Positions 45,743-64,000 of a stretch of DNA of 64,000 nt are shown piece by piece. The translations under genes were made by a program, and so were the position numbers. The stretch's first letter is position 1; each line of letters starts with the position of its first letter. The notes under the pieces are model-generated. The model saw only the letters and a list, made by a program, of their open reading frames with translations. It ran no database searches and was not told where the DNA came from. Source of the DNA: Candidatus Poribacteria bacterium (GTDB lineage: Bacteria; Poribacteria; WGA-4E; UBA9662); assembly GCA_036339735.1 (NCBI GenBank), contig JAYZAL010000064.1, positions 1 to 64,000 of the forward strand, in the 5' to 3' direction.

Positions 45743-47051
45743 TTCGTCCCATGTTTACTGATATTTGTGAAACGTCAGTAATAACCTCTACTCCAGTTCT
45801 CTTCGAATCAATAACTTGAAATGCGACATCATCCAAATTGTAACGGATTGACTGCATACGTTCAAGGAGGTCAACTTTCTCATCAATAATGAAACTATTA
45901 TACTGTTGTTTCTCTGACATTATTAGACAGTTCATCTGTCTCTTTTGAACACGCAAATCGAACTTTAAGCTGCCAAGATTTTCTGTTTCAATTGACATTT
46001 CCAAGTGCATATTTTCCGTATCCAGTTTATCTTGGTCGTCTAAGTTATACCCCAAAACTTCCGCTGATAAATCCTTCTTATTTACACTGTATGGAATCTG
46101 AAAATAAACTTGGCTTCGTCCCGTAATCAATGGGTTCATAGCCAATTCTAACGCATCAATCTGACACAATACCGAATCGATGGCTTTATGCACTCGACTC
46201 AAGGATTCATCGGAGTACGGCATTTCTAATACGAGTTGGGTCTTGAATTGAATCAAATTGGCTTTTAGGCTTTTTCTCTGCAGGAATGCCTCTGAGGCAT
46301 TTGACCTTTGACCAGCTAAAAACAATTTTCGTTCGTATGACAACCCCAACAGGTTCACAGATTGAGAAATTTCTTCAGCTAAATTGTTTGAATTAGGGGC
46401 AATTGAACGCGTTGCTTCCAGAATCTGTCGATACAATTCGCTCTTACTACCAAAAGAATTAATCGAATCTTTAATTGAAGCCGTCAGTTCACTTCGTAAT
46501 AACCTAAATCTCTGGTGTAATTTGTCTTGCCGATAATAAAGATTTTTTAAAGCTCGAAACAGATGAGATTTAGGCGGAAAGTTTAACAACCAGCTAGTAA
46601 AGAGAAAGTTTGTACTGTAGCTCGTTCCTGATAGCGAATCAGCTTTTTGAGCATACTGAGCGAAATCAATCACGATACAAGGATCAATTGGAGTTTTATT
46701 CTGATACAGAATTTGAGCAAAATCGAGATGTCGCTGATTAGAAGGTAAACCAGCATCGTTAAGTAGAGATGTAATCTCAGAGTCAAATTTAGAGGGCATC
46801 GTACTTGTAGGAATAAAACTCATTCGTACTCCTCCTTTCAACGATATGACTTTTGCCTCAACTTCTTGACCTCGTCTGAGCCTAGATTTTATTTCAGTGA
46901 CTAACTTCTGTCCCTTAAAATTGATTAGGAATTGATTATTACCCAATACACGAACAACAATACCCTTTAAGATTTCGCCAGATTTTAATCCGGATTTAAA
47001 TGATGAAATCGACGGGTCTGTGACACGACCTAAAATTGGAGTCAATTTCAT
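45726..47051 (-). CDS. FliK-like (hook-length control family) protein, second copy
   Basis: N-terminal GEILKGIVV..L.N...LIN..G; C-terminal YFQIP...LEMSIETENLGSLKFDL..L.ERMQSI.Y; adjacent to FlhB-C, a common pairing. Confidence 0.7.
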   Translation of the reverse strand: MKLTPILGRVTDPSISSFKSGLKSGEILKGIVVRVLGNNQFLINFKGQKLVTEIKSRLRRGQEVEAKVISLKGGVRMSFIPTSTMPSKFDSEITSLLNDAGLPSNQRHLDFAQILYQNKTPIDPCIVIDFAQYAQKADSLSGTSYSTNFLFTSWLLNFPPKSHLFRALKNLYYRQDKLHQRFRLLRSELTASIKDSINSFGSKSELYRQILEATRSIAPNSNNLAEEISQSVNLLGLSYERKLFLAGQRSNASEAFLQRKSLKANLIQFKTQLVLEMPYSDESLSRVHKAIDSVLCQIDALELAMNPLITGRSQVYFQIPYSVNKKDLSAEVLGYNLDDQDKLDTENMHLEMSIETENLGSLKFDLRVQKRQMNCLIMSEKQQYNSFIIDEKVDLLERMQSIRYNLDDVAFQVIDSKRTGVEVITDVSQISVNMGRIDVSA

Positions 47052-47581: not shown

Positions 47582-49351
47582 CTACCTTAAAGTAAAAGTA
47601 CTCATTGAAGGTGAAATATCCCGACCTAGATTATCTCTACCAATTACAGTGGCAACGACTTTAACCCCATCTTTTGGTAAACTATCGAGTTGGTAACCTA
47701 CAGTCCAAACACTCTGTGTCTGATCGATTCTTTTCATCATCAATGTTCGAGGCGTTAAATCAGGCGATTCTGGGAAAGTCAAACCAACAGTGAGGTCTGC
47801 AACATTATCCAAGATCGATACAATTTTAAACTCGTAGCGCAGAATTGGATTACGAATTAATATAACGGGAAACGTTTTTTCTGTATCAGTAGGAAGATCA
47901 AAAACAGATATTGTTATAGCTGTCTCTTCCACTTTCTTGTTTTCAAATTTAGCAATTACTTTGACTTTTTCAGAAGCCCCAACCCAGTCCCTTTGAGGTC
48001 TCAATGTCAAAATTCTATTCTTAATAATAACCGACACATGTTCAGAAGAGATAGCTTCCCACACAATATCATTAAAAACTTCCCTAGGTTCTATGTCTAA
48101 ATAACGGTTCAGATCGATATGGTGTTCTTCATTCTTAATCAATGACACCGTATTTGGAAGAGTTAAGTCAAGTTTTACAAAAGGAAGTGGTTGAACTGAA
48201 ACTTCTAACTCGCCACGGTCAAAATTACCATCAGGATCTGTAACAATGACAAACATTTTAAACTTTTTTGTATTGGCTACTGGATTCAATGACCGAAATG
48301 TCAGACGTGGTGGGTTATCAATAATACCTTTCGACTTGTCTAAACGATTTGCGCTGACTCCACCGATGACAAGTGCAGTTGGCATCCCATCAATAGACCA
48401 GCTTAATTCGGCGTTCTTATGATCCATATCTTTGACAAAGTTGTCTAGTAGCAAAATCTCCTCTGAACCAGCACGAAAACTTAGCTCAGGAAAACGAATC
48501 AAAACAGGAATCCCCTTATTATCAAGCCATAACGTTGCGGTGTCGATAGCGAGCGAATCACCAATCTTCAAAGAAACCCGCAAGTCAACTTTGACGACTT
48601 CGCCTTTTGATTTGGGCAAAAGGTCTCCCACGATAAGCTGGTTGGCTACATTCAATTCAACTTTCTTAGGTCTTCCTTTATCATCTTCTGCATTCAGTAC
48701 CCAATTAAGTTTTGGTCTTCCTTCTGTTCCTGAAATTATCACAAATTTATCTAATGGAACATTCTTGCCTGGATTTTCGGAAACAAATCTCTGAAGGTCA
48801 TATCGATCAATTTTGACTAACGTGTTCTTAACCTCAATATTAGCATCAACTAAATCTTTAAATGATCTCAGGCGAGGCTTTCCATCCTTAAGTTGTGTGA
48901 ATAGAGTATATTTCCCTTTGTTCCAGTGTACTTTTGGGTCTCGGTTGAATAGGATACGTGTTTTTCCACTTCCACGACCAACAAACTGAACTTTTGCAAC
49001 AACACCACGTCCTTTTGGGTAAGGAGCAGCATTCGAAATGACAGCAAACCCGACTTCTGTTGTGGATACAATCTTATTCAGGACCACAGTCCCTGTGTAA
49101 AATGGCCCTTGAACAAAAGGCGTCTCTTGGTTTACCAACCGTAACTTGTTAGGCTCGTATGTTAAATATACTTCGACACCAGCACTTGGAGTATCGCCTA
49201 CATCAATAAAAATCTCGAGATCTATTAAATCTCCTTGTTGAACTGTGATATCACTTTTTAGACTATCAGTACTACGAAGCCGAATCTCTGCTCCACTGGC
49301 TGCAGTCTTAAACAATAGAACTAAAAAAATATAGGAGAGTAGTTTATTCAC
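47582..49351 (-). CDS. Exported cohesin-domain protein with Ig/cadherin-like repeats
   Basis: Signal peptide; VQQGDLIDLEIFID...GVEVYLTYEPNKLRLV cohesin pattern; LDNFVKDMD...LSWS and IDLNRYL...W...LTLRP..DWVG repeats. Confidence 0.7.
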   Translation of the reverse strand: MNKLLSYIFLVLLFKTAASGAEIRLRSTDSLKSDITVQQGDLIDLEIFIDVGDTPSAGVEVYLTYEPNKLRLVNQETPFVQGPFYTGTVVLNKIVSTTEVGFAVISNAAPYPKGRGVVAKVQFVGRGSGKTRILFNRDPKVHWNKGKYTLFTQLKDGKPRLRSFKDLVDANIEVKNTLVKIDRYDLQRFVSENPGKNVPLDKFVIISGTEGRPKLNWVLNAEDDKGRPKKVELNVANQLIVGDLLPKSKGEVVKVDLRVSLKIGDSLAIDTATLWLDNKGIPVLIRFPELSFRAGSEEILLLDNFVKDMDHKNAELSWSIDGMPTALVIGGVSANRLDKSKGIIDNPPRLTFRSLNPVANTKKFKMFVIVTDPDGNFDRGELEVSVQPLPFVKLDLTLPNTVSLIKNEEHHIDLNRYLDIEPREVFNDIVWEAISSEHVSVIIKNRILTLRPQRDWVGASEKVKVIAKFENKKVEETAITISVFDLPTDTEKTFPVILIRNPILRYEFKIVSILDNVADLTVGLTFPESPDLTPRTLMMKRIDQTQSVWTVGYQLDSLPKDGVKVVATVIGRDNLGRDISPSMSTFTLR

Positions 49352-50517
49352 TGCGCTTCTAATGCTCGTTTGATTTGCAGTACTTTCTCAATGTATCTCT
49401 GCGTTTCTGAAGGTAAACTGTTCCTTTTTTTTACCCGAGTAGGTCCGGCATTATAAGCCGCTAAAGCTAACGAGACCTGACCAAATGAATCTATTTGCTG
49501 TTTCAAGTACCTAGCACCACCTGATATATTTTGTCGTGGGTCGAACACATTTGTAACACCAAGATCCTTCGCCGTACCCGCCATAAGTTGGGTCAATCCA
49601 CTTGCTTTTTTAGGAGAAACGGCACGACTATTTCCACCAGACTCAACATAAACAAGTGCAATCAACAATTCAGGGTCTAAGTCATTATCCCTGGCCGCCG
49701 ATCGAATCAGGTTCTTGTACCGATTTACTCGAGCAAGTATTTTGTCGTTTAATTCTTGCTTCCTTTTCGATTTTGCGTCAACTGAAGTGAGTTTTTTTTG
49801 CTGACTTTTTTTAGGTTTTGTGTGGACGAAGCCTTTTTTTGCTAATGACAACTTCTCAGTTGAGGAAGGCGGGGAGATAAAGGGTTTCGCTCCCGAACTT
49901 TTCACCAAATCGATTCTATTATCTGCTTGAGACGATCTAGATTCAATTGATGATTTGACTAGCTCTGCCTGGGATTGGTTATGAGGTTTCAATAAACTTG
50001 ATACAACCGTTGAATTTTGGCTCTGGAACTTATCAAATTCCTTGGCTTTTTGATGAGATTGGTGATGGACAAGTGCCAACCTTTGACGATTTCGACGAAC
50101 TATTGCAGCCTTTGTGTAAAGAGCAGATGCTGTGGACTCTTTCCTTACATCCGAACGACTAGATTTCGAAGCCAAAGGAGTAGGGGGTGAAGATTCTATT
50201 CTTACCTGTGGAATTTTTTGATCCCAGGACTTTGTATTAATAAGAGATTTACCATACAAAGATTCATCACTCTTAATTTTCCAATGAGAAATGACTTTGA
50301 CATCCTTAATGAAGGTCACCCCTCCGTTGTATGCAACATAAGTAGATGAATCAACCGCAGTATAATCTATCCATCGATTTCCCCGATAATCTGTCACAAG
50401 CAACTTATAAATTGTTTTCACTTTTGCCTCAGAATTAGAAACAAAACAGGTAAAGGCAAGAAAGCCTAGAACGGCTAGATATAGAAGCCGATGGAAATTC
50501 AAAATTAGTATGCCCAT
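49348..50517 (-). CDS. Lytic transglycosylase (SLT domain) with N-terminal domain and S/K-rich linker
   Basis: VESGG, AVSPKKASGLTQLMAGTA, NISGGARYL, LALAAYNAG, ETQRYI. Confidence 0.92.
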   Translation of the reverse strand: MGILILNFHRLLYLAVLGFLAFTCFVSNSEAKVKTIYKLLVTDYRGNRWIDYTAVDSSTYVAYNGGVTFIKDVKVISHWKIKSDESLYGKSLINTKSWDQKIPQVRIESSPPTPLASKSSRSDVRKESTASALYTKAAIVRRNRQRLALVHHQSHQKAKEFDKFQSQNSTVVSSLLKPHNQSQAELVKSSIESRSSQADNRIDLVKSSGAKPFISPPSSTEKLSLAKKGFVHTKPKKSQQKKLTSVDAKSKRKQELNDKILARVNRYKNLIRSAARDNDLDPELLIALVYVESGGNSRAVSPKKASGLTQLMAGTAKDLGVTNVFDPRQNISGGARYLKQQIDSFGQVSLALAAYNAGPTRVKKRNSLPSETQRYIEKVLQIKRALEAQ

Positions 50518-50572: not shown

Positions 50573-53500
50573 CTATTTCAATATTACCATCTTTTTTAAA
50601 GATGTTTGGTGATCCGTTTGTAGCTCATAGAAGTAGACTCCACTCGCAACTTGTTCACCATTTGCGTTACGGCCATCCCAATATGCTGCAAATCCTTGGC
50701 TAGAATAATCTCCTGCAGGCATTATTCCCAAGTTCAATTCCTTAACTAAAATACCTGTCGCATCGTAAATCCGAATCGATACATGCGATTGCTGACTGAG
50801 CTTATAGGGTAACCATGTCTCAGGGTTGAACGGGTTTGGATAGTTCTGGGCTAGTTCAGTTTTCTGCGGCTTCTTTAAAGTCTCAATAGTTTGAACCCAT
50901 CCCCCTTCAGGGTGAGAGTAAATGTTACGGCCTCCATCCACCACTACTAAACGTTCTAGTTTAATGTCGCCATAACCTCCAGCTTTGCTGACAAAAGAGA
51001 AACTTGCCAAATCGGAAGTCCCAGAAGCATTACCATTCCTTCCAGCAATCATATTAGCTACCAAAATCCTGTTAAGACCATTTGATTCCTCAAAAGTACG
51101 ACTAATAAAGAATGTCTCGGCATTAGATGAATTACGTTCCAGAATTTGGCCTGCCTCTACCTTTTCGTCCATTAAATGCCACAGATCAGGATCGTAAGTC
51201 AGTTCGAACGCATAACCTTTTATACTGTCAACCTTAGCCATGACTTGAAGACTTATTGTTTCTCCCTCTTGAACAACCTGTGGCAAATTTGGCTTGATCA
51301 ATTGGAAGGTTTGCTCTACGATCGCAGGTGAAGCTGCTGGCGGCGGACCACCATCGCCAGTAGGTGGAACACCCAATCCCCCAAAGTCACTAACAATGAT
51401 GTCGTAGTCCACTAGGTTGATGTTACCATCGTCGTTCAAATCGGCATTATCATTGAATTGCTCATGCCCCTCTTGAGTCCCCCAAGCTTGCATAAACAAG
51501 TTCATGTCCCCTATGTTTATCCTGTTATCACCATCAATATCTCCACCAATTAAGTATTGATCCTGATCTTTCGAGTAAATGTCGATACCACGCAAATTAT
51601 CACCAGGAATCACTACTAAAGTGGAAGTATTAGCTTTGGGTTGGTATTGCCCACGCAAATAGGAATTTGCCTTGGCAACTAGCTCCCAAGTACCTCTTGG
51701 TACCCCTTGAATAGTATATGACCCGTCAGCTTTAGTTGTTACTTGAATCCCAGGTTTAGCTTCATCTTCATCATTTGCAATACTATCAATTTCTAAATCT
51801 TCAGTTGTACCTGGTTTACGCAAAGAGAATGTAACTTCAGCTGAATGATCTCGACGTCCTTCCAATTTAACTTTTCCAAAAATAGCTGCATGAGGCAAAA
51901 TCTGAATAGCTAGAGCCGGCGTATTGGCTATCGGTGAGACATTCTCCCGAGTATCTGTTAAAGGATCAATTATAGCAATTGAAGTCCCTCGATTACTAGC
52001 AGCCTCATCGAAATCAAATGAAACTGTAGTATTGATCGGGCGTGTACCCTCGTGTTCTTTCACCTTAAAAGTTAAGGTTGTCAATGTTCGATAGATACCA
52101 GTCCTAACAGCTTTAGAATTATTTTTAATAACTATACTGTAATCTAACTGAAACCCACTAATACCGTTGGCCATACTATCCTCAATAGTATCATCGTGGG
52201 TGTCGTTTTCTAGAACCTCTTGCTGGTTTTCTTTAGCATCATCTAGATCAAAAATTAACGATGATTTGTCGACCCCATCATCTGAAGAGGACAGTTGGCG
52301 AAATGGTAAAGCCGAATCCTGAATTTCCAGGTACCGGTCATCAAAAGTCATGTAAATGCTTGCCCCTTTGATCTTAACATCCGGACTTCTTAGTTGAACA
52401 CGGACCTGAAACTCTTCGCCTGGTCCTGCCGCAATAGATGCTGGGCGTAAGCGGATATTCACCTTACGAATGGTTACACTACCGGCAGCTTTACTATATG
52501 CTTCATTACCACTACCATCCGTCGCTTTCGCATAAATAAAATAAGAACCGTTTAAACCAAATTCATTCGCAGATTCGAAAGATTCAATATCCCAGGAGTA
52601 AGACCCTAAGCCGGCTGAAGTCTGGTAATTAGTGGTCAAAACACCCGACTGGACTGTATTATCACTCACTTCACCTATGATTATCCTAGCGTCATCCTCC
52701 AATGTATGATAATACAAGTTAATTTTTATATCATTGTTATCGATATCTTCTGTATGCCATGAAACAGTATATTCATCTATCGCACGAGAGCCCTGAAGAA
52801 TCGGTGAAATTAGCTTAATCGTTGGCGGATATTTGACAATTAGCCGCCCCCTACTGCGCAACGCCTTTTCTTTAATTTCTGATTCTTCTTTAGCTTTCGT
52901 TGGGTCTTTATCGCTGATTATGGCATAGATATAGTAGCCAGAAAGGCTTTCTTTCACATTTTGATTACGAAAGTTCCACTTGTACTGGCCTAAATCCTCA
53001 TCTTCATCTTCACTCAAGTTGCCGGCAATAAACTCAGTGTTTTCCCGTAATGTTACCAAATCTAAGGTCGAGAGATTCTTGTCGCTATAATAAAGACTGA
53101 TCCTAGCGTCCCCTAGATTTTTTTTGTCAGTCCACTGAACTATAAAAGAGCCATCTGTAATATCAACATCGTTCTGAGGTGTTAGATTGCTCAGGAAAAC
53201 ATCATGCCTCACCTCAACTTGCCCCGGAGCTCGAACCAGTTCAGAACTTATGTCAGTGTCTTCTATAATGCCGTATATCGTATAGAGTCCTTCCGGAATA
53301 TTACGTGTTTCCCAGATAATATTGGTTTCTTCTGCTCCAACAGTCAATTCCACTGGTATGGAATCCGAAGGATCGATACTTGGTATGGCTGGAACTAAAA
53401 CGCTTGTGTCACTCTCTGTTGCAACACGGGCTTTCAAGCCAGCAATGTCCTCAGGCCCGAAATCGTCTTTTCCAGAATAAAACAACGTAATTTTTGCCTT

Positions 53501-54703
53501 CGGGTTAGGTCCGCTAGCACTGAACCCAACTTGACCTTGATCATCAAAAATCACGGCAGGTACTTTGAATGGCGAGAGTATTTTTAGTACAGGCTTTTCT
53601 GGCAATTTAGTAATAACAGGACCGGACGAACTGAAGTCTTCTGCAGGACCTGCAGGAACAGATTTACTGAAAGTAAAACTCGTTCCCTGCTGAAGAATAA
53701 CGCCGATCGTATCACCTTCCCTAGCCTTACCTTCGGTCTTTGTTAAAGCTGCCAAAAGAAAAGTGTTTTGCGTTGAGCCTTCAGGTTCCGCCCCAAGTAA
53801 TGGTTGATCAAGTTCAAATGACAGGCTTATAAGATCTGTTTTAATTTCCGCAATTGGTGCACCATCGTTTTCATCTAGGACACGCAAAGGTTCAATATCT
53901 TTGTAAAGATAAAGTGTCTCAACCGACTCACGGACGAAAGGTGGAGCCAATTGAAGAGTCATCGACATCATATTTTGGGCTATATCCGACCTGACTTCAA
54001 TTGCAGATAAAGCAACTCTCTTATTAAAGGAAACTGGCTTCCCATCATTGAGAGCCGTTACTATGATTGATTCGATCCCCTTAACCATTGGCCCATCAAT
54101 CCGTCTCTGATCTTCCATCGCGGAAACCCTATCGGCCTCACGAAAGAAAAAAGCATGACTGCTAAGATAAAGAATTACCTGATTACCTCTCGTGGTTTTC
54201 CCGGGATTAAGAACGACGACTAAAAGGAAATTAGTGGTTGTTTCTTCCCCAAGTTTACCTACAGGTAACCCAAGCCCTGCTTTTTGCAAGTTTAGCGGGG
54301 CTCGGCTATTGATATCAAGAACCTCTGAGGTAATCCACTCAGCGCTATCTGGCTTTCCATCTTTGTTGACGTCTTCATACAGTTCGATCTTGGCAATTGA
54401 AGTGTCCTCCACCCCTTTATTCTGTTCTTCCAATTTAAGATTACTTACTTTCAGGAAAAACCATTCATCTTGCCCTCCATCATCTGTAATAGCTATATTT
54501 GCAACTACAGCTTGCAAGTCACCAGGATCAACCAATTCATCCGAAGTAACTGGTTGGACATTGATGTTAGTGACAAGGCCCCAAGACAAATAGGGCGAAC
54601 AGAAAACACCCACAATACAAAGTATTAAACCAGCGTAAATAGAACTATATGTTCGGTAGAGTAAAGAACAGCTAATAGACACTGCTCGGTCAAACTTCCT
54701 CAT
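50573..54703 (-). CDS. Giant exported Ig-repeat protein with two cohesins, a dockerin and a C-terminal FlgD-Ig/T9SS-type-A-like domain
   Basis: Signal/TM; LYED.N.DG repeats; three I.LYY...W....G.Y.IY repeats; cohesins PGEEFQVRV..GASIYMTFD and EGETISLQV..GYAFELTYD; dockerin GDIDGDNRINIGD...ADLNDDGNINLVD; NYPNPFNPETW..WDGRN..GE.VASGVYFY. Confidence 0.8.
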   Translation of the reverse strand: MRKFDRAVSISCSLLYRTYSSIYAGLILCIVGVFCSPYLSWGLVTNINVQPVTSDELVDPGDLQAVVANIAITDDGGQDEWFFLKVSNLKLEEQNKGVEDTSIAKIELYEDVNKDGKPDSAEWITSEVLDINSRAPLNLQKAGLGLPVGKLGEETTTNFLLVVVLNPGKTTRGNQVILYLSSHAFFFREADRVSAMEDQRRIDGPMVKGIESIIVTALNDGKPVSFNKRVALSAIEVRSDIAQNMMSMTLQLAPPFVRESVETLYLYKDIEPLRVLDENDGAPIAEIKTDLISLSFELDQPLLGAEPEGSTQNTFLLAALTKTEGKAREGDTIGVILQQGTSFTFSKSVPAGPAEDFSSSGPVITKLPEKPVLKILSPFKVPAVIFDDQGQVGFSASGPNPKAKITLFYSGKDDFGPEDIAGLKARVATESDTSVLVPAIPSIDPSDSIPVELTVGAEETNIIWETRNIPEGLYTIYGIIEDTDISSELVRAPGQVEVRHDVFLSNLTPQNDVDITDGSFIVQWTDKKNLGDARISLYYSDKNLSTLDLVTLRENTEFIAGNLSEDEDEDLGQYKWNFRNQNVKESLSGYYIYAIISDKDPTKAKEESEIKEKALRSRGRLIVKYPPTIKLISPILQGSRAIDEYTVSWHTEDIDNNDIKINLYYHTLEDDARIIIGEVSDNTVQSGVLTTNYQTSAGLGSYSWDIESFESANEFGLNGSYFIYAKATDGSGNEAYSKAAGSVTIRKVNIRLRPASIAAGPGEEFQVRVQLRSPDVKIKGASIYMTFDDRYLEIQDSALPFRQLSSSDDGVDKSSLIFDLDDAKENQQEVLENDTHDDTIEDSMANGISGFQLDYSIVIKNNSKAVRTGIYRTLTTLTFKVKEHEGTRPINTTVSFDFDEAASNRGTSIAIIDPLTDTRENVSPIANTPALAIQILPHAAIFGKVKLEGRRDHSAEVTFSLRKPGTTEDLEIDSIANDEDEAKPGIQVTTKADGSYTIQGVPRGTWELVAKANSYLRGQYQPKANTSTLVVIPGDNLRGIDIYSKDQDQYLIGGDIDGDNRINIGDMNLFMQAWGTQEGHEQFNDNADLNDDGNINLVDYDIIVSDFGGLGVPPTGDGGPPPAASPAIVEQTFQLIKPNLPQVVQEGETISLQVMAKVDSIKGYAFELTYDPDLWHLMDEKVEAGQILERNSSNAETFFISRTFEESNGLNRILVANMIAGRNGNASGTSDLASFSFVSKAGGYGDIKLERLVVVDGGRNIYSHPEGGWVQTIETLKKPQKTELAQNYPNPFNPETWLPYKLSQQSHVSIRIYDATGILVKELNLGIMPAGDYSSQGFAAYWDGRNANGEQVASGVYFYELQTDHQTSLKKMVILK

Positions 54704-54744: not shown

Positions 54745-56184
54745 CTACATAAAATTAAATAGACTTGGTGACATAGTACGCGCACCGGTTTGAAGCATAG
54801 CTGTCAACATGTTAAGTTGTATCTGATACTCAACAACTGCGTCTGAATAATCAACTTGCTCTACAGTTTCAAGAAACTGTTCGAGCGCTAAATTTTTATC
54901 CGACAATCGATTACGTAATGTGTCAGCTCGGTTAAGTTTTCCCCCAACCTGAGTTTGTAAAATTGTTATATGCTCAATAGAACTCTCCATAGCATTCGAA
55001 AGTTCTTCAATAGCACCTTTCCCTTGATTTCTAACAGCGGCTTGCAAGTCGACTAATTGATCAAAAACTCTTTGAAAAGCTACATCCCCGGGCATCCCGA
55101 CTTCGATAAAAGAGCTTTTTCCAACTCGCTCTAAATGAACCCCTTCATCTCCTTGATAACTAATACCGACTATATCCCCGATACCAACACTGGTATGCTT
55201 TATAACCCTTGCATCTAATCCTGCATCGTAAGTGTTCTGCAGAGGCGTTTTCAATAAGACAACAGCTTCATTCTTTGTTAGATCCGTCTGGACAGTCTCA
55301 ACCAAAGCTATTTCCGAAACCCCTCCCATACCTTGCACAACAATTTGATCTCCTGCTTCCAAAGCTCCTTGAACTCTGTCCAATGGAAGGACCACCGCTC
55401 TTCGTTCGGCACTTTTTAACAATGGAACAGCCACTGTGGTATCTTCGCTTTCTATATCGGCTTCCTCACCATCCACTTTAGGTTTTGTCAAAACAGCTGG
55501 TTGATTCGATTCAACTGAGTAATTATTTGATAAATCTGAATTGAATTGTATCACAACGCTGTCGCCTGACGACTGAACCGACGAGACCGTAACATATTCT
55601 TGATTTTCACCCTGTTTCAAAACTAATTCATCCCCTACGGAGAACGAATCGGCATATTCTAAACCAATCTCTACTTTATCATGAGAGACGTTTCTAGCAA
55701 ATTTAAATTCTCTTGTGGCAACTGTAGACTGGCTCCGCTCAGCCGTAAAAGCTGTACCTTCCGTTCTATTACCAGCAAACAGAGGTTTACCCTCAAAAGT
55801 GGTATTCACAGTTTCCAATGTCGATTCTACTAACTGCTTTAATTCTTCTGCATAAAACTTATAATCCGAAGGATGATTAGTATCGGACAGGGCCATCTGC
55901 GCTAAATCACGAGCTCTACCTAAAATACTCTGTACATCCTGATACACCATATTTTCTACGCTAAGCTGAGCTTCTGTGTGATTCACGTTTGAAACGAATT
56001 GCTCGTTCTGGGAAATATGTCCCCTAATATCCAGAATCTTGTTGGCTAAAGCTGGGTCATCTGATGGTTTCTGAATTCTTAAACCGGTGGAGACCCGCAT
56101 TTGAGCCTTCTCTAGGTTTTCCAACGCAGTATTAATCTTTCTTTTTAGATTGTCAGCTTGTCCTGCACTTGTAACACGAGCCAT
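54745..56184 (-). CDS. flgL: Flagellar hook-filament junction protein FlgL with two inserted repeat domains
   Basis: STGLRIQKPSDDP, GKPLFAG, YQGD, C-terminal VDYSDAV...SLFNFM; follows flgK. Confidence 0.9.
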   Translation of the reverse strand: MARVTSAGQADNLKRKINTALENLEKAQMRVSTGLRIQKPSDDPALANKILDIRGHISQNEQFVSNVNHTEAQLSVENMVYQDVQSILGRARDLAQMALSDTNHPSDYKFYAEELKQLVESTLETVNTTFEGKPLFAGNRTEGTAFTAERSQSTVATREFKFARNVSHDKVEIGLEYADSFSVGDELVLKQGENQEYVTVSSVQSSGDSVVIQFNSDLSNNYSVESNQPAVLTKPKVDGEEADIESEDTTVAVPLLKSAERRAVVLPLDRVQGALEAGDQIVVQGMGGVSEIALVETVQTDLTKNEAVVLLKTPLQNTYDAGLDARVIKHTSVGIGDIVGISYQGDEGVHLERVGKSSFIEVGMPGDVAFQRVFDQLVDLQAAVRNQGKGAIEELSNAMESSIEHITILQTQVGGKLNRADTLRNRLSDKNLALEQFLETVEQVDYSDAVVEYQIQLNMLTAMLQTGARTMSPSLFNFM

Positions 56185-56216
56185 TTATTTGCTCCTTCAA
56201 CGGTACGAATATTCTA

Positions 56217-57728
56217 TTATCTTGGTGCCATTCGATTAATAACAGTATCAGTCATTTGGTCAATTGTTGACATCATCCGAGCCGCAGCTTCGAAAATACT
56301 TTGATATTGCATCATGGTAACGAGTTCTTCATCTAAAGAAACTCCAGAAACACTTTGCCACCTAGCCTCAAGTTGATCCCGTACCAGTTGAGTTGTATTA
56401 ACTCGGCGCTCGTTTTCATCTGACAACCCACCCAAAGAAGCGACAGAAGTGTTATAAAAATCTGTAAAATTCAAAGTTCCTTCTTCAAAAAACAAAGTAT
56501 TCTGTAGAGATACCATTTCCAAAGCATTCTCATTCTCTCCCCTAGCTGTTCCTTTTGCCGTAGCAATCAGATTGAGGTTCCCTGCAACTTCTGGTGCCAT
56601 TTTGATGGTAGCTGCAATTCTAGATGGTGGTTGAGTTTCAGGAGGAGCTGTTTCGCCAGTACCATAAGAAACTGTTCCATTAGCATCCGGCAAATTAAAC
56701 TGAAATAGGGACTGACCGTTCGACCCTGTTAACCCACGACCAGACTGATGTACACGATTAATTTGACGAACAAAAGTGTATGCAAAACGGTCTAAGTTTT
56801 TGAGTGTCTGAGGAATTATTTCATCCTGCATCCGTAACAAACCAGCGATTGCACCACCACGGATTGTTACATCTCGGGTTTGACCTGGCTGTTTCAGTAC
56901 GACGTCAACCAATTGCTCTGAGATTGCAGTCGTTGTGTCCATCGCACCATCCAAAGGTTTCTTTGGAATTACTTTCAGTTCATTAACTTCGGTTTCTTGT
57001 ATAAGCGGATTACCATCTAACATCACCATGACGGTACCATTATCTTGCTCTATAACACGAACGTCAACCAATTGAGCTATTTCACCTACTAATTCGTCTC
57101 TCAAATCCAGTAAATTTGCGGCTTCTGTCGGCTCTGCCACACTGGAAATATCTTCATGTATAACTGATAATTGACGCAATAGAGAATTTACACGATCAAC
57201 ACGGATCTTTATATCTTCGGCAAACGTTGGCTGCAATTCTTCTAAGTCTGCATAAAACCCACGCAAATCTCCGGCAACAGCTTGAGCCTTGGTCCTGACC
57301 TCTGCTCTGAAAGCTGAATCAGTAGGATCTTGAGCCAAAGTCTCCCAAGCGTTAAAAAAATCAGAAACGGTACTATTGAAATTATCCTCCGATAAAGAAT
57401 TAAAGATAATCTCAATCTGTTGGATGCCTTTTTGCTCCTCTTCTAACTGATTCAACCTCTGATCAGCATACCTAATCTGAGTTTCAATAAACACATCACG
57501 CTTGCGGTCTAGCCTGGCCAAAGCACTCCCAGTACCAAGATGTATCGTTCTGCCAAGACCAGACAAACCACGGTGCTCTATACTCTCCGTGGTTGAAATA
57601 ATTGGAACCTGACGATGATAAGCCCTATTGCCCGCGTTAGATACGTTTTGCTGATTTGTCTGAATCGCAGCCTGATGCGTTTGCATCGACCGTCGACTCA
57701 TTTCGAGAATACTAAAAAGAGTGGACAT
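56217..57728 (-). CDS. flgK: Flagellar hook-associated protein FlgK
   Basis: NVSNA...YHRQ, FFNAWE.L..DP, LLDLRD.L, SVSGVSLDEEL..MMQYQ..F.AAAR. Confidence 0.96.
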   Translation of the reverse strand: MSTLFSILEMSRRSMQTHQAAIQTNQQNVSNAGNRAYHRQVPIISTTESIEHRGLSGLGRTIHLGTGSALARLDRKRDVFIETQIRYADQRLNQLEEEQKGIQQIEIIFNSLSEDNFNSTVSDFFNAWETLAQDPTDSAFRAEVRTKAQAVAGDLRGFYADLEELQPTFAEDIKIRVDRVNSLLRQLSVIHEDISSVAEPTEAANLLDLRDELVGEIAQLVDVRVIEQDNGTVMVMLDGNPLIQETEVNELKVIPKKPLDGAMDTTTAISEQLVDVVLKQPGQTRDVTIRGGAIAGLLRMQDEIIPQTLKNLDRFAYTFVRQINRVHQSGRGLTGSNGQSLFQFNLPDANGTVSYGTGETAPPETQPPSRIAATIKMAPEVAGNLNLIATAKGTARGENENALEMVSLQNTLFFEEGTLNFTDFYNTSVASLGGLSDENERRVNTTQLVRDQLEARWQSVSGVSLDEELVTMMQYQSIFEAAARMMSTIDQMTDTVINRMAPR

Positions 57729-57746
57729 TCTTAATCCTTAAACTAT

Positions 57747-58256
57747 TCAAATCCTATGATCGAACATGCCTTTACCTTGTGGGCTACGGACATGACCATC
57801 ATCTTGATAAGTATCTCCTGGTTCATCAATTCGCATTACTTCATCAACCAGGAAAGACGCGTATTCTTGCTCACTTTCTAATAGACTTTTGTTGGTATCA
57901 TTAATAAACTCGAACTCTCTTTTTACTCGTTCTACACGCTGAAAAAGCTTTTGATAATCCGATTTTAGAGGTTCGTCTGCCAATTTGGTAATCGTTGTCG
58001 CGTTTAGTGATTGATCAACTAAACCTTCTTCCGTCGCCAACTTAGTCAGAAGAACATCACGAGTAATTTCAATCTTTTGGATCTTTTGGATAGTTGATTC
58101 CTCATTCTTAATCAATTCTTCCAATTCTTTAATTTCACGCTTTACTAACAGATCTCGCTCGGCATACAAAATCTTCAAGAGTTCATAGTACTTATCAAGT
58201 TCATAGCGCAACAGTTCAAACAAATCAGAAAGCAATGCTTGCAATATAACTACCAC
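57747..58256 (-). CDS. flgN: Flagellar export chaperone FlgN
   Basis: Helical protein with L...E..LL, N..N..LL, TY...G and C-terminal FDHRI; directly upstream of flgK. Confidence 0.8.
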   Translation of the reverse strand: MVVILQALLSDLFELLRYELDKYYELLKILYAERDLLVKREIKELEELIKNEESTIQKIQKIEITRDVLLTKLATEEGLVDQSLNATTITKLADEPLKSDYQKLFQRVERVKREFEFINDTNKSLLESEQEYASFLVDEVMRIDEPGDTYQDDGHVRSPQGKGMFDHRI

Positions 58257-58284
58257 TAAGCCCCAAGATATTCGCTACTTTAGG

Positions 58285-58311
58285 GTATCGACAGAAAAGC
58301 CAACAACTTTA
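58285..58311 (-). promoter_or_regulatory. Sigma28 (FliA/SigD) promoter for flgN-flgK-flgL
   Basis: TAAA-15 bp-GTCGATAC versus consensus TAAA-N15-GCCGATAA. Confidence 0.75.
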
Positions 58312-58312
58312 C

Positions 58313-59098
58313 CTATACAGAAACCCTACCCAGAGTTTCAATTGCTTTTCCCATAATTGTATCATGGGCCTTTATCACTCTTTGATTGGCTTGATAAGCT
58401 CTTGTGACGGTAATCATATCAACCATCTCGGTAACAACACTAACATTAGACATCTCTAACGTTCCTGATTTCATACGAACAGTTCCAACTCGTTCTGGTA
58501 TCGCATTAGGATCTGTCGGAATAAAAAGGCTATTACCCATTTTGGTCAAATCGTATGGCTTAGAAAAATCAACGACTTGTAATCGGTCGACAAATTCGTT
58601 GTTGACCATGATTTCACCCACTTGATTGATATCGACCTGACTGCCAGTTATTTTAATTGGCCCATTTTCTCCCAATACTGGATGCCCATCAGCAGTTACT
58701 AACCGATATTCAGTATCAACTACAAAGTTTCCATTTCGCGTGTAACGTTCACCTGATGGTGTTTGAACGACAAAAAAACCTTGATTAAAAAGCGCCAGAT
58801 CAAGAGTATTGCCTGTCTCTTGGTAACTACCCGATGTCGACAGATCATGAGCCGTAACATCCGGGTTAACCCCCAAACCAATCCGACCAGCGACAGGTCG
58901 AGGGTCGACTTCGAAACCACCACTTATGGCCTTGGGATCGTGGATCCGCTTTAGCAACAAGCTTGGAAATGCCTTAGAAACAGAGATGTCTCGCTTATAA
59001 CCTGCAGTATTGACGTTTGCTAAGTTATTTGCAATCACCTCTTGCCTCTTCAACTCATTGAGCATTCCTGTTGTGGCAATGTACAAACCTCGTGTCAT
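58313..59098 (-). CDS. flgF: Flagellar basal-body rod protein FlgF/FlhO type
   Basis: RGLYIATTGM, IANNLANVNTAGYKRD, TGNTLDLAL, YTRNGNF, LEMSNVSVVTEMVDMI. Confidence 0.85.
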   Translation of the reverse strand: MTRGLYIATTGMLNELKRQEVIANNLANVNTAGYKRDISVSKAFPSLLLKRIHDPKAISGGFEVDPRPVAGRIGLGVNPDVTAHDLSTSGSYQETGNTLDLALFNQGFFVVQTPSGERYTRNGNFVVDTEYRLVTADGHPVLGENGPIKITGSQVDINQVGEIMVNNEFVDRLQVVDFSKPYDLTKMGNSLFIPTDPNAIPERVGTVRMKSGTLEMSNVSVVTEMVDMITVTRAYQANQRVIKAHDTIMGKAIETLGRVSV

Positions 59099-59133: not shown

Positions 59134-60699
59134 TTACCGCTTGAGACCTAGTGCTTCCTGAAGAATGCTATCTGAAGTTGTAATAATCCGTGAGTTAGCT
59201 TGAAAACCCCTTTCAGTTGTTATTAGGTCAGTAAATTCTTCAGTCAAGTCAACATTAGACATCTCTAGTGCTCCCGATGAGATTTCACCCATGTTACGAC
59301 CTCCAGCAGCAATATACGATGGAGCGCCAGAACTAGGAGACACTGCAAACATACTATCTTGAATCGTATTCAATCCTTCTGGGTTAGGTATGTCAGCCAA
59401 AGCGACTTGGGCAATTGAGCGACTTATACCATTAGAGAAAATCCCATTGATAGTTCCGTCAGCGCCAATACTAAATGAGGTTAACGTCCCAGGCCCCACA
59501 CCGTCTTGCCGAGATGCCATAGCATCTGAAGTGGAAGCAAACTGAGTCAAATTACCAAACTGAAGGTCAAAGGTTAAATCTTTTCCATCACCTTTGGGCT
59601 TTATAGTAACCGTTGGCTCAGCAGGCGTAACAAACTCAAACGCGCCAGAATCTCCATTGAAACGTACTAAGCCGCTACCACTAACACCATCAGCCTCAAC
59701 ATCTGTAGCACCGGTTGCAGCCCAAGTCCAAGTGTTATCAGTGTCTTTCTGCTTTGTAAATGTTAACTCTACATCGTGGCGTTGACCAACACCATCGTAT
59801 ACACCAATTGTACTCTTATGTACTGCGGACACGACGTTGATTGAAGCAATCCCACTATTAAGATTTTCACCAAAACTGAGAGTTACACCATTACCATTAG
59901 GATCCTGAAGTGTTACTGCCTGATCCGCACCAGGTATTGCTACGTCAGGCCCACCATCGAGAGAGGCTACCAAATTACCACTTTCAGGGTCAGCAGGATC
60001 TCTTTTCACAATAATCCTGTGCGCTCCAGTCGACAACTGACTGTCGGCAGGTAAATCATAAGTCTTAATTCCAGTACCACCACTTTCCGTCAACTCGGCT
60101 TGTCCCGCTCGAGTATCTAAATTTCCCATATACTCAACAAATCCGGTTGATTTAGCGATTGATTTCGAGAAAGGAAAGTTAATCTTCCCAACGGGCTTAC
60201 TACTATCAACTAACCCTGTTGCACTATCAGCGTTCCAGCCCATGACTCTATAACCATTTGGCCTGTACATCATATCACCGTTAGTGTCAATTCCAAAGTT
60301 TCCTGCTCTTGTAAAAACTTTGACAGAATTCGAAGACGCTGCCACTCCTTTACTGTTTGGATCTACTTGAGCCGCGTCGGGGGCTCCCAGAACAAACATC
60401 CCCTTACCACGAACCATCAAATCCGTCGCAACGTCAGTGATTTGCGGACTCCCATTTTTGTGATTAACGTCAATGGAACTTATCTGCACGCCTGCGCCCA
60501 CCTGATTAGGATTAGTGGCACCTCTTTGACCTGTAGCTGCAACTCCACCTTTCAGAGTTTGAGCAAATGTTTCTCTAAAAATGACCCGAGATTTTTTAAA
60601 TCCAGTTGTGTTTATATTAGCTAGATTATTTCCAATAATATTAACCTTAGCCTGATGGGTCCGTAACCCTGTCAGCCCTGAATATAATGCACCAATCAT
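59134..60699 (-). CDS. flgE: Flagellar hook protein FlgE
   Basis: IGNNLANINTTGFK, FTRAGNF, VYDGVG..H, LEMSNVDLTEEFTDLI..RGFQANSRIITTSD. Confidence 0.96.
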   Translation of the reverse strand: MIGALYSGLTGLRTHQAKVNIIGNNLANINTTGFKKSRVIFRETFAQTLKGGVAATGQRGATNPNQVGAGVQISSIDVNHKNGSPQITDVATDLMVRGKGMFVLGAPDAAQVDPNSKGVAASSNSVKVFTRAGNFGIDTNGDMMYRPNGYRVMGWNADSATGLVDSSKPVGKINFPFSKSIAKSTGFVEYMGNLDTRAGQAELTESGGTGIKTYDLPADSQLSTGAHRIIVKRDPADPESGNLVASLDGGPDVAIPGADQAVTLQDPNGNGVTLSFGENLNSGIASINVVSAVHKSTIGVYDGVGQRHDVELTFTKQKDTDNTWTWAATGATDVEADGVSGSGLVRFNGDSGAFEFVTPAEPTVTIKPKGDGKDLTFDLQFGNLTQFASTSDAMASRQDGVGPGTLTSFSIGADGTINGIFSNGISRSIAQVALADIPNPEGLNTIQDSMFAVSPSSGAPSYIAAGGRNMGEISSGALEMSNVDLTEEFTDLITTERGFQANSRIITTSDSILQEALGLKR

Positions 60700-60715: not shown

Positions 60716-60760
60716 AATCTTTATCTTCTTAGACGTTCTTCAATCTTTATCTTCTTAGAC
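60716..60760. repeat. Perfect 19-bp direct repeat at the flgC/flgE junction
   Basis: AATCTTTATCTTCTTAGAC at 60716-60734 and 60742-60760. Confidence 0.95.
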
Positions 60761-61174
60761 ACTTCGGCCAATACTTAGTGCTTCACGCGCCATCGTTTTT
60801 GCCGCATTAATAGCTTGTACGTTTGCCTCATAAGCACGAGTCGCAGAAATTAAATCAACCATTTCACTGACGATATTGACATTTGGCATGTGGACATAGC
60901 CATTTTCATCTGCATCCGGATGTCCTGGATCATATCGCAACTGAAGTGGGTTAGTCAGCGAATGATCTTCTCGAATACCATTCTTCGGAATATGAACGCC
61001 CTTCAAATCAGGCCTTGGCATAAAGACAACCATCTTCCTTCTAAATGGTTCACCTGTTTCCGTTCGTGTGGTATTGACATTAGCAATGTTGTTAGAGATA
61101 ACTTCCATACGTAATCGCTCGGCTGTTAACCCTGAACCACTAGCTTGAATCGCCGAAATAAAACTCACAACCAT
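60755..61174 (-). CDS. flgC: Flagellar basal-body rod protein FlgC
   Basis: SGLTAERLRMEVISNNIAN, YDPGHPDAD..GYV.MPNV, ATRAYEAN. Confidence 0.97.
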   Translation of the reverse strand: MVVSFISAIQASGSGLTAERLRMEVISNNIANVNTTRTETGEPFRRKMVVFMPRPDLKGVHIPKNGIREDHSLTNPLQLRYDPGHPDADENGYVHMPNVNIVSEMVDLISATRAYEANVQAINAAKTMAREALSIGRSV

Positions 61175-61180
61175 TTACTC

Positions 61181-61576
61181 CTAAACAATAATTGCACTAT
61201 CTATATTGGTGAAAACGTTATCCTTCATATTATGTCCGTCTATCACCGTAATAACAGTCCGATTTTTTACACTAACAATAAATGCCAAATCGTCCATTAA
61301 CAACAAGGACTCACTAGCACCTTTTTGGGATGCTCTCTCGACAGCATTTTCGATTTTTACCAAATCTTGTCGGCTGAGATCTATTTGACGAACAGCCAAC
61401 CTTCCCTCAGCATGAGCACTAAAATTTATCCCCTTACGCTCTCCGATCTGTTTTTTGAGAGCCTTTTTAAAAGAAGCCTTTGTATGAGGCGAACCGACCC
61501 CTTTATTCGACCGGAAATCGTTTTTCTGAACTAAGGGCGTAGTTACGTTTTCTGTTCGCTGGATCATGTTCATCAC
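61181..61576 (-). CDS. Flagellar operon protein (TIGR02530 family)
   Basis: FSAHA..RL..R.I, A..KG...SLLL.DD.AFIVSVKNRTVIT, NVFTNIDSA. Confidence 0.92.
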   Translation of the reverse strand: MMNMIQRTENVTTPLVQKNDFRSNKGVGSPHTKASFKKALKKQIGERKGINFSAHAEGRLAVRQIDLSRQDLVKIENAVERASQKGASESLLLMDDLAFIVSVKNRTVITVIDGHNMKDNVFTNIDSAIIV

Positions 61577-61607
61577 TGTTCAAAATCTATCGTAATTTCC
61601 GTTTCAA

Positions 61608-62024: not shown

Positions 62025-62038
62025 TGTAATTTGCTCCT

Positions 62039-63892
62039 TTAAACTAGATGGTCTATCCCAGTGGAAGAAAAGTTTATATGTTGGGCTCCCATTTGCTCGT
62101 CGCTCCTCGAGCTACCTGATAACTCATACGAAACGTCATTGTTTGGTGTACCTGCTCCTTGAAATCGACGATACCCCAAATCTTGGTCCCAATCACTAAA
62201 GTTTTGCCACCCACCTTGTTGTTCCGAATTATTAGACATTACCTGAAAGTTATCGATTTGAATTCCATGTTCCGATAGCGCGTTTCTTAATTGTGCCAAG
62301 TTACCTCTAACAATCTCACTTACCATCCCATTTCTCGCCTGAACTTGTGCTGACAATACACTATCTTCAAAAACTAAACGAATATGAAGCCTACCGAGGG
62401 AAGGAGGCTCCAAGTCGATAGTCGCCTGTTGAAACCCACGCCCTAACTGGGGCTGTAGCTTGTCTGCGATTTGGATGATCACTTGATCAGAACTAACAAT
62501 CTGAGTTGGTAGGGTCGCGTCGCCCTGAGCTCCACTTAGCACATTTGCTAAACTGACAGTATCCATACGCTGAATCTGATTCCAACTCAATACCATATTT
62601 TGTGTGCCTTGAGCTGTTTCAGTATATCCTTGACTAATCTCGAATTGAGGTAATTGGAAACCTCTATACTGAGACTGTAACCCTCGCTGGTTAAGGGTCT
62701 GATGATTTGGTGAATTCTGCTGCTGTAGATTGAACTGTAACTGGCGTAACTGGTTCAAACTTTCGTTGCCAGGTTCAAACGCTTTACCTGTCAACATATT
62801 TGAAAAATTAGATTGAGGCATATTTTCAGCTGGTGGCAAAACAATCACTCGTTCTACTGGCACTTCCAACTGACTAGCCAAATCCTCTACATTACTAACA
62901 TCACCAAAGGGTAATAGTTCAGTCTCAATCAATTTTTTTTCGTTAGTGTCGAATACACCCACCACACCTTTTGAGTCATTCGATTCAGTCGAAACCTGGA
63001 CTTGGCTCTCGAAATCCTGCCCATCCTCAAATCCCAAGGCCATAGGTGTTTGTGCTACCTGAACGCCTGAATCTTCAGTATGAGTCGAACTAAATCCATG
63101 GGGGCCCAACTTAGAATCAAACTCATTTATATCGTCATGATTAATCCCATCAGCAGAAGTTCCAGATTCGGCCGAAACCGACATAACCTCTTGCTCTAAC
63201 AACAGATCTGCCATCGACAGTTCACCTGACTGCAGATTACTTTCTAAATCTCCCTGCCTGCCTCTAGCGCTTTCAGCGAAACGTGCAACAATCTGCTCTG
63301 CCAACTGATCTAGTTCTGTCTCACCGAGTGCTTCGATATTAAGATCTGAAAGCAACTTTGGCAAATTTATATTCGAAGTAGCTACAGAGGCCTCTGAACC
63401 ATCCAATGAACTCAACCCCTGATTACCGGCCTTATCATCGAAAAGCGTTTTTTGTCCGCCTGAAAGTTGCTGGATCAACATTTCAGCCAATCCTAACTGG
63501 CCGGTTTTTGCAATTTCCATTGCATACTTTTCGTCTAGCATGCCGTTGAAAATTTTCATCGTGGTACTGTTTTCGCCTAAAAAATCAGTCTCAGTAGACG
63601 ATTGCCGCATAGTTGAAAGTAATTGAGCAACAAAAACGGATTCAAACTCTTGAGCAGCAGTTCGAAGCTTACTCTGTTCAGGAGTTAAAGGCCCCTGAGA
63701 TGATAATGACAATGAAGAGGCTCGGAGCGAATCCGCCTGTTGCTGGCCTCCACTTTTGTCATTGCCCATCATTGCTGATATTTTAGCCCCTAGCTTTTGA
63801 GCTTTAGACTTGTATGTATCATAGTCAGTCGACGCAGCGCCCATTGAGCCTTTACTGGATTCTTGTTGCAATAAGACAGGGAAAATATCCAT
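62039..63892 (-). CDS. Fusion of an FlgJ N-terminal rod-binding domain and a FliK hook-length control C-terminal domain
   Basis: aa 75-143 KLRTAAQEFESVFVAQLLSTMR...MLDEKYA.EIA...GLAEMLIQQL; C-terminal ATIDLEPPSLGRLHI...L.QLRNALSEHGI; one uninterrupted ORF. Confidence 0.85.
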   Translation of the reverse strand: MDIFPVLLQQESSKGSMGAASTDYDTYKSKAQKLGAKISAMMGNDKSGGQQQADSLRASSLSLSSQGPLTPEQSKLRTAAQEFESVFVAQLLSTMRQSSTETDFLGENSTTMKIFNGMLDEKYAMEIAKTGQLGLAEMLIQQLSGGQKTLFDDKAGNQGLSSLDGSEASVATSNINLPKLLSDLNIEALGETELDQLAEQIVARFAESARGRQGDLESNLQSGELSMADLLLEQEVMSVSAESGTSADGINHDDINEFDSKLGPHGFSSTHTEDSGVQVAQTPMALGFEDGQDFESQVQVSTESNDSKGVVGVFDTNEKKLIETELLPFGDVSNVEDLASQLEVPVERVIVLPPAENMPQSNFSNMLTGKAFEPGNESLNQLRQLQFNLQQQNSPNHQTLNQRGLQSQYRGFQLPQFEISQGYTETAQGTQNMVLSWNQIQRMDTVSLANVLSGAQGDATLPTQIVSSDQVIIQIADKLQPQLGRGFQQATIDLEPPSLGRLHIRLVFEDSVLSAQVQARNGMVSEIVRGNLAQLRNALSEHGIQIDNFQVMSNNSEQQGGWQNFSDWDQDLGYRRFQGAGTPNNDVSYELSGSSRSDEQMGAQHINFSSTGIDHLV

Positions 63893-63902
63893 TATAACTT
63901 CC

Positions 63903-64000
63903 TTACATAATGATCAGCTTGGCGTGCAATGCGCCAGCTTTTTCCATCAGTTTCAAAACTTCGATCAACTCCATAGTAGATGTACCCGCAGCTTTTAAAG
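63903..64000 (-). CDS. flgI: Flagellar P-ring protein FlgI, C-terminal fragment (runs off the window)
   Basis: Translated by hand as LKAAGTSTMELIEVLKLMEKAGALHAKLIIM*, matching the FlgI C-terminus; immediately upstream of the FlgJ domain. Confidence 0.85.
   Translation of the reverse strand, partial: LKAAGTSTMELIEVLKLMEKAGALHAKLIIM

Follow-up and report, generated by a model that had tools for sequence, protein, structure and literature searches.

It is a matter of debate by what means length is sensed by FliK, and which part of the growing tip is gripped by the N-terminal end of this protein. In Rhodobacter sphaeroides, a single-domain FlgJ is accompanied by a separate lytic transglycosylase, SltF, and in the dual flagellar systems of this species and of Vibrio parahaemolyticus flgJ and fliK are not known to be anything but separate genes. 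Flagellar genes have also been reported in free-living Poribacteria. The single-domain FlgJ of Borrelia functions in assembly of the hook and filament, not of the rod, and has a separate lytic transglycosylase as its binding partner (PMC8517470). The FliK model comprises an N-terminal ruler and a C-terminal switch, with terminal residues acting on FlhB (PMC13344023). Here we describe a gene in a 64,000 nt long stretch of DNA (contig JAYZAL010000064.1, positions 1 to 64,000, assembly GCA_036339735.1; hereafter the window) from a free-living marine Candidatus Poribacteria genome. This one gene combines a FlgJ-type rod-cap domain and a FliK-type hook-length switch domain, and is referred to as the fusion in the text that follows.

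The fusion is encoded by a single open reading frame (ORF) that starts with ATG. An initial annotation, based on the nucleotide sequence alone, had proposed that a FlgJ rod-binding domain and a FliK C-terminal domain are joined in one ORF of 617 aa, and profile searches bear this out, as both Pfam domains score above their cut-offs. Rod-binding (PF10135) was found at residues 94-142 with 43.6 bits (cut-off 25.1, E 4.2e-11), and Flg_hook (PF02120) at residues 481-559 with 67.5 bits (cut-off 29.8, E 9.4e-19). Among NCBIfam models, those for FlgJ match residues 64-175, and the N-terminal part is matched by FlgJ models only. In TIGR02541, an equivalog model of the dual-domain FlgJ, the N-terminal positions 20-103 align with residues 73-164 (E 3e-13), but the fusion does not reach the full-length cut-off of this model (50.3 bits vs 193). 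No FliK model is present among the NCBIfam matches of the fusion, and neither Pfam nor NCBIfam detected a glucosaminidase domain or that of any other cell-wall hydrolase in it. A profile built from 20 members of the fusion family matches the structure of the Salmonella FliK switch domain (PDB 2rrl, E 1.8e-8), and this was the only match in the PDB at E 0.01 or better.

The AlphaFold2 model is poor overall, with a mean predicted local distance difference test score (pLDDT) of 43.5. Helices are predicted at residues 71-144 (pLDDT 55-65) and an alpha/beta domain at residues 468-553 (pLDDT 70-78), while pLDDT falls below 50 at residues 145-192, 204-379 and 388-438, with two short higher-scoring stretches in between. 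Judged by sequence, residues 1-150 have the complete layout of a single-domain FlgJ, composed of the N-terminal end followed by rod-binding helices and lacking a muramidase, and residues 455-617 correspond to a FliK switch (T3S4) domain whose C-terminal end is conserved. The conserved N-terminus is likely an export signal. The switch domain carries a conserved LEPPxLG-type motif, and conservation is also seen at the extreme C-terminus, where V617 is nearly invariant in alignments. The role of the tail would follow the FliK model (PMC13344023). Between the two modules, the spacer is composed of 11% L, 11% S, 10% Q and 9% E. The initial annotation described it as a long linker of low complexity; the long linker is indeed present, at about 300 aa and predicted to be disordered, but its compositional bias is only mild and it is not strongly low-complexity. 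Predicted disorder, low conservation and variable length all fit a presumed function of the spacer as a ruler.

The fusion is one real gene and not an assembly error. A set of 34 homologous proteins was collected at E 0.001 or better, and both Pfam domains occur in 33 of them, with lengths of 609-618 aa and identities of 48-99%; those with a taxon name all belong to Candidatus Poribacteria. The remaining one, P0034 (437 aa), is collinear up to residue 435 and ends just ahead of the switch domain. It may have been cut by a contig end, by an error, or by a real truncation. Public sequencing runs that hold the stretch number 20, from 11 studies, and include 8 RNA libraries. Contigs of four independent runs (three of RNA libraries, from three studies, and one of DNA) extend over each of the 30 bins and are free of indels, joints and loose ends, and single contigs spanning 62424-63502, 62605-64000 and 61600-63023 together bridge the whole spacer. 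Differences within the ORF (34 of 41 listed) comprise 24 synonymous and 10 nonsynonymous changes and no stops. The linker is thus free of the stop, frameshift or misassembly that the initial annotation had considered, and relatives keep the fusion instead of encoding its halves separately. In the divergent set of nine homologues with identity below 70%, residues 91-150 and 481-540 are 84-93% identical (about 90% in the switch domain), and residues 211-330 only 9-18%. Conservation in the protein is thus highest in the two domains. Coordinates of the fusion, its parts and the neighbouring flagellar genes are listed in Table 1.

Table 1. Fusion gene, its modules and associated flagellar genes, in positions of the window
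Feature	Positions	Strand	Basis
Fusion gene, 617 aa: FlgJ-type N-terminal part, disordered spacer, FliK-type switch domain	62039..63892	-	ORF call, Pfam
FlgJ-like module, aa 1-150: conserved N-terminus and Rod-binding helices	63443..63892	-	Pfam, NCBIfam, conservation, AlphaFold2
Rod-binding (Pfam), aa 94-142	63467-63613	-	PF10135
Spacer, presumed ruler, aa 147-455	62528..63454	-	Low conservation, predicted disorder, length variable among relatives
FliK switch (T3S4 / Flg_hook) domain, aa 481-559	62216..62452	-	PF02120, 2rrl match, conservation, pLDDT
Variable tail, aa 560-617, and stop codon; conserved last pentapeptide (IDHLV type)	62039..62215	-	Alignments
flgI 3' end (P-ring gene), continuing past the window	63903..64000	-	Open frame
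flgD (hook cap), 138 aa	61608..62024	-	Pfam FlgD, E 5.5e-24
TIGR02530-family flagellar operon protein	61181..61576	-	112.5 bits vs cut-off 83.2
flgC (proximal rod)	60755..61174	-	TIGR01395, 159.9 bits vs cut-off 102.1
flgE (hook)	59134..60699	-	Pfam FlgE_D2, Flg_bb_rod, Flg_bbr_C
flgG/F-like rod gene, flgN, flgK, flgL (same set as the fusion)	54745..59098	-	Pfam
Lytic transglycosylase, 389 aa, signal-peptide-like N-terminus (Sec-type)	49348..50517	-	SLT domain, E 2.6e-27
FliK-like protein, 441 aa, weak Flg_hook match (21 bits, under cut-off)	45726..47051	-	Pfam
441-aa gene and adjoining FlhB-C-only gene (115 aa, TIGR00789 type, no NPTH)	45395..47051	-	Pfam, NCBIfam

As the initial annotation had noted, the ORF lies between flgI and flgD, with the 3' end of flgI upstream and flgD downstream. 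The complete flgI gene was located at L008 1904-2923 (FlgI in Pfam, E 9.6e-88). The TAA stop of flgI and a GGAAG ribosome-binding site, located 6 nt ahead of the ATG of the fusion, overlap each other, and flgD begins 14 nt past the stop of the fusion and has an AGGAG site before its start. Because of these ribosome-binding sites and gaps of 10-14 nt, flgI, the fusion and flgD are assigned to one operon. In this arrangement the fusion occupies at the same time the slot directly downstream of flgI, which is that of flgJ, and the slot directly upstream of the flgD-flgE hook module, which is that of fliK.

The gene order around unfused flgJ was surveyed in species-representative genomes. In 44 loci of other phyla flgJ is unfused and encodes 115-292 aa, and in 39 of them it directly follows flgI. 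The next gene is flgM in 21 loci, flgN in 11 and flgK in 5, and in none of the 44 is it fliK, flgD or flgE, in agreement with the earlier proposal that the fusion joins two usual adjacencies. The fusion would thus mark the insertion of a hook module into the flgJ-flgM junction of a ring/rod module. The same genomes contain five loci in which the fusion is complete, each with Poribacteria or uncultured as its label, and one more that is cut by a contig end.

The source genome (G000; 4.32 Mb in 107 contigs, 92% complete) contains two flagellar gene sets, evidenced by pairs of FlhA and FliF proteins and by two full-length FlhB proteins, with NPTH in both FlhB. Set A is distributed over contigs C77, C68 and C24, and set B over C64 and C79. 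On C77, set A shows the order flgA-flgH-flgI-flgJ-flgM-flgN-flgK-flgL, in which flgJ encodes a 117-aa protein with Rod-binding only; on C68, it continues as fliH-fliI-fliJ and, further on, fliK (1025 aa)-flgD-flgE-motA. The core of set B on C79 consists of a flgB-like gene, fliE, fliF, a 333-aa ORF, fliH, a 439-aa ORF, fliJ, a 241-aa unknown, flbD, motA, motB and fliL; the 333-aa and 439-aa ORFs were not included in the domain scan. No fliK, flgD, flgE or flgC is present in this core stretch on C79. The gene in the fliK slot, flgD, flgE and flgC of set B are found instead in the cluster of the window, ordered flgG-flgA-flgH-flgI-fusion-flgD-TIGR02530-flgC-flgE-flgG-flgN-flgK-flgL. Genome-wide, Rod-binding matches two proteins and Flg_hook three, of which the third is the 441-aa FliK-like protein, and the domain search of this 92% complete assembly found no FlgJ or canonical FliK for set B besides the fusion. 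The fusion serves an extra flagellar system, and the canonical FlgJ/FliK pair is not replaced in the cell. The initial annotation raised the question of a separate flgJ elsewhere in the genome; one exists, the 117-aa gene of set A, while the second, ordinary set to which it belongs, with also the 1025-aa FliK, was missed there.

Proximal rod genes of set B are unusually split, as flgC is located in the window between the TIGR02530 gene and flgE, and on C79 (L009 8405..9201) fliE comes immediately after the flgB-like gene and flgC is missing. The set B cluster also has no flgM at the site where unfused clusters have one. A second, weaker FlgM-like match (27.5 bits) was observed at G000:C5:3090-3254, away from both flagellar clusters.

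FlhA is present in 24 of the 176 Poribacteria genomes of the phylum collection, and the fusion in eight. It forms one open frame in G000, G059, G060, G061, G062, G063 and G017, and is split across two contig ends in G006. All eight have at least two FlhA matches, and a stand-alone FlgJ occurs in every fusion-carrying genome listed. The second flagellar set is limited to a subset of FlhA-bearing genomes (families f1, f5 and f9). Single-FlhA genomes, as inspected, have set A only; G032, G037, G016 and G001 show the A-type flgI-flgJ cluster with a stand-alone flgJ. The A-type order fliK-flgD-flgE was found in G005 and in the A cluster of G058. The order flgG-flgA-flgH-flgI-fusion-flgD-TIGR02530-flgC-flgE-flgG-flgN-flgK is complete in the loci of seven relatives and partial in five loci cut at contig ends.

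A scan of 1.84 billion representative sequences gave 5468 matches at E 0.001 or better. Ten top matches were examined with Pfam, and six of these have both domains, with lengths of 354, 384, 497, 552, 650 and 688 aa; a further fused member is 396 aa long. Total lengths of fused relatives thus extend from 354 to 688 aa, meaning that spacer length differs over a range exceeding 300 residues. All members that have a taxon label are from Poribacteria, while six divergent ones are without such a label, among them the most divergent four (P0041 and P0043-P0045). Their N-terminal domains are closest to that of the G017 fusion, with 51-56% identity in P0043-P0045 and 41% in P0041. A metagenome scan aimed at these four proteins recovered none of their loci; it returned Poribacteria-type fusions and unfused flgJ, with the fusion in 6 of 80 loci. 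P0038, P0040, P0049 and P0051 were considered as split forms and rejected as fragments, being derived from contigs of 623-929 nt or from pieces of transcript assemblies. Three Flg_hook stretches were detected by Pfam in P0042 (497 aa), and phmmer matched the query in 11 stretches of P0037 (1638 aa); these two are possible FliK relatives with multiple switch domains. P0152 (293 aa) has Rod-binding fused to an SLT lytic transglycosylase domain, and represents another cargo on the FlgJ N-terminal module.

Relationships between the two sets were addressed in a tree of FlgI, in which nine set-B sequences form one clade (support 98) apart from seven set-A sequences. Set B is placed weakly beside Bdellovibrionota (support 86, long branches), and its wider placement is unreliable. 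Because of this weak placement and the long branches, no donor for set B is proposed. Profiles of the spacer (residues 150-330, 172-232 and 331-455) were compared with 142 non-fused proteins, consisting of unfused FliKs and stand-alone FlgJs, to look for remains of a FliK N-terminal region, and only same-family fused fragments were matched. Since no unfused FliK was among the matches, the joining-on of a whole fliK cannot be shown.

Lytic transglycosylase encoded in the window (Table 1) is 11.5 kb distant from the fusion. Its best NCBIfam match is the model of the flagellar lytic transglycosylase BB0259, under the cut-off, and the gene is syntenic in G059, G061 and G006. We regard this enzyme as a candidate peptidoglycan-cutting partner of the FlgJ part, which lacks a muramidase. 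A complex prediction combining residues 32-389 of the enzyme with residues 60-235 of the fusion gave a score of 0.00, and speaks neither for nor against binding.

By analogy with FlgJ and FliK, we consider it fairly probable that the fusion is an early flagellar export substrate which would act as ruler and switch of set B, and whose FlgJ-type tip-binding end would also supply the rod-cap function. In such a mechanism, the protein would be exported N-terminus first, as an early substrate of the set B type III export gate. Its FlgJ-type end would dock on the growing rod or hook tip; subunits of the rod and the hook have the same terminal helices. The spacer would span the channel in the manner of the FliK ruler. 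Once sufficient length is reached, the trailing switch domain would dwell at the set B FlhB and flip export to late substrates. The cap or scaffold function for the rod would come from copies that are exported while the rod grows, and peptidoglycan would be cut by the separately encoded Sec-type lytic transglycosylase. A stronger version, which we put forward only tentatively, is that the fusion could be a true cap-ruler, in which a defined structural anchor is the point from which axial length (of the rod, or of the rod and hook) is read, and capping of the rod is mechanically coupled with the export switch. The initial annotation had suggested a ruler that could be tied to the rod tip, could measure the rod together with the hook, or could unite capping and switching in a single event.

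Several observations weigh against the proposed ruler, switch and cap function. Export, tip binding and length control are predictions from homology, the model of the N-terminal domain is of low confidence (pLDDT 55-65), and occurrence in RNA libraries is no proof of transcription. In the draft state of the genome, at 92% completeness and in 107 contigs, an extra flgJ or fliK could be unassembled, and both systems could be served by the stand-alone FlgJ that set A provides. The 441-aa protein with the weak Flg_hook match is encoded 16 kb from the fusion, beside the FlhB-C-only gene. The fusion was not found with this query in G058 (80% complete, two FlhA matches, one of them partial) or in G007 (73% complete), and the homologue P0034 ends without the switch domain. 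Finally, with a strict ruler, totals of 354 to 688 aa imply hooks that differ greatly in length.

Among other explanations, the fusion may have the function of FliK only, its FlgJ-type domain replacing the usual N-terminal tip-binding end while the 117-aa FlgJ of set A caps the set B rod in trans. The stand-alone FlgJ in every listed fusion-carrying genome agrees with this, as do the FliK names given by NCBI to some members and the whole-protein language-model neighbours in a protein atlas, which are all FliK clusters; their scores of 0.88 are below the level that counts and are a lead only. We nevertheless judge it rather unlikely. The N-terminal part is laid out completely as in a single-domain FlgJ, is located exactly in the flgJ slot after flgI, and is only 36% identical to the FlgJ of set A. 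The separate clade of set B FlgI indicates two old, divergent systems, between which shared parts are less likely. The opposite possibility, that the protein works mainly as FlgJ, would leave the switch domain vestigial or as a checkpoint at the rod stage, with another protein, for example the 441-aa FliK-like one, determining the hook length of set B. The window indeed offers this second, weak Flg_hook protein adjoining the FlhB-C-only gene. However, the 441-aa gene was detected in 15 of 176 phylum genomes, including single-FlhA genomes with their own FliK (G032, G037, G010-G012 and G016 among them), and because of this presence it is not specific to set B. Moreover, the high conservation of the switch domain in the divergent set indicates that it is not vestigial, and the place of the fusion ahead of flgD-flgE is the canonical one of fliK, so that a mainly FlgJ-type function appears improbable.

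It can also be imagined that one gene gives two products, if an internal start or proteolysis within the spacer frees separate FlgJ and FliK proteins and the fusion matters for expression only. A long, disordered and poorly conserved spacer would be accessible to proteases, but no invariant or nearly invariant spacer methionine exists among 20 aligned fused proteins, and a freed FliK part without an N-terminal export signal is, from general knowledge of FliK, not expected to be secreted; we find this quite improbable. An artefact, in which two adjacent genes were merged by a missed stop or a frameshift, might be suspected in a draft genome of 107 contigs, given the truncated P0034 and the G006 gene split over two contig ends. 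It is refuted by the same uninterrupted frame in 33 of 34 homologues from several sources, by the fusion in five species-representative genomes and 6 of 80 metagenome loci, and by contigs of four independent runs without an indel, leaving it next to no probability. The fusion as an exported ruler and switch of set B with a probable additional cap role is the explanation we prefer.

Other genes in the window were inspected as well. A 1376-aa protein encoded between flgL and the lytic transglycosylase (50573..54703, minus strand) carries a type IX secretion C-terminal sorting domain, a dockerin and a carboxypeptidase-regulatory-like domain; its FlgD_ig match overlaps the sorting domain and is probably due to a shared Ig-like fold. 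In or beside the flagellar cluster, a 589-aa ORF (47582..49351, minus strand) has no match in Pfam and NCBIfam, and a 247-aa ORF (41326..42069, minus strand) none in Pfam. The window further contains a 1104-aa protein with an FGE-sulfatase domain (42076..45390, minus strand) and a PSCyt1/PSCyt2/PSD1 protein of the Planctomycete-type cytochrome family (26535..30314, minus strand), and several PhyH dioxygenase genes occur in and around it.

The initial annotation was aware of no description of such an architecture, and none was found in a full-text literature search, whose reach excluded most subscription journals and supplements. Annotation pipelines name members of the family 'Rod binding domain-containing protein/flagellar hook-length control protein FliK', 'FliK', 'FlgJ' or 'hypothetical protein'. 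The domain pair is thus already visible in databases but uninterpreted, and its component families are known. What the fusion offers is a FliK N-terminal end replaced with a domain whose partners are known in kind, namely rod-type subunits. The conventional unfused system in the same cells, together with the variation of the spacer by more than 300 residues among relatives, makes a natural comparison that bears on anchoring at the tip, on ruler length versus hook length, and on the use of one protein for rod capping and substrate switching. If the fusion were a true cap-ruler, the series of spacer lengths in proteins of 354 to 688 aa would be a ready test of the ruler model, with the conventional FlgJ and FliK as an internal control. 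As the carriers are uncultured, direct tests are distant.

Compared with known systems, the genome resembles V. parahaemolyticus, with its polar and lateral flagella, and R. sphaeroides, with fla1 and fla2, in having two full gene sets with separate export gates in one genome. The C-terminal T3S4 domain with its LEPPxLG-type motif, the conserved extreme C-terminus, the disordered region that precedes the T3S4 domain and the locus directly upstream of flgD-flgE are shared with FliK (Salmonella, PDB 2rrl). Unlike FliK, which has a family-specific N-terminal region, the fusion begins with a FlgJ rod-binding domain that can be recognised as such. As in single-domain FlgJ, the gene directly follows flgI, and similarly to FlgJ and BB0259 of Borrelia burgdorferi (PMC8517470), an N-terminal rod-binding module without a muramidase is combined with an SLT enzyme encoded nearby. 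Known single-domain FlgJ ends soon after the rod-binding motif, whereas the fusion continues for about 470 residues that include the FliK switch domain. In the dual-domain FlgJ of beta- and gamma-proteobacteria (Rod-binding and glucosaminidase) and in fusions of Rod-binding with SLT, the rod-binding module is likewise an N-terminal carrier of a second module. The cargo of dual-domain FlgJ is a periplasmic cell-wall enzyme; that of the fusion is a switch domain of the cytoplasmic side, so that its two ends would act at opposite ends of the export channel. The modularity of the FlgJ N-terminal domain is in this way extended past cell-wall enzymes.

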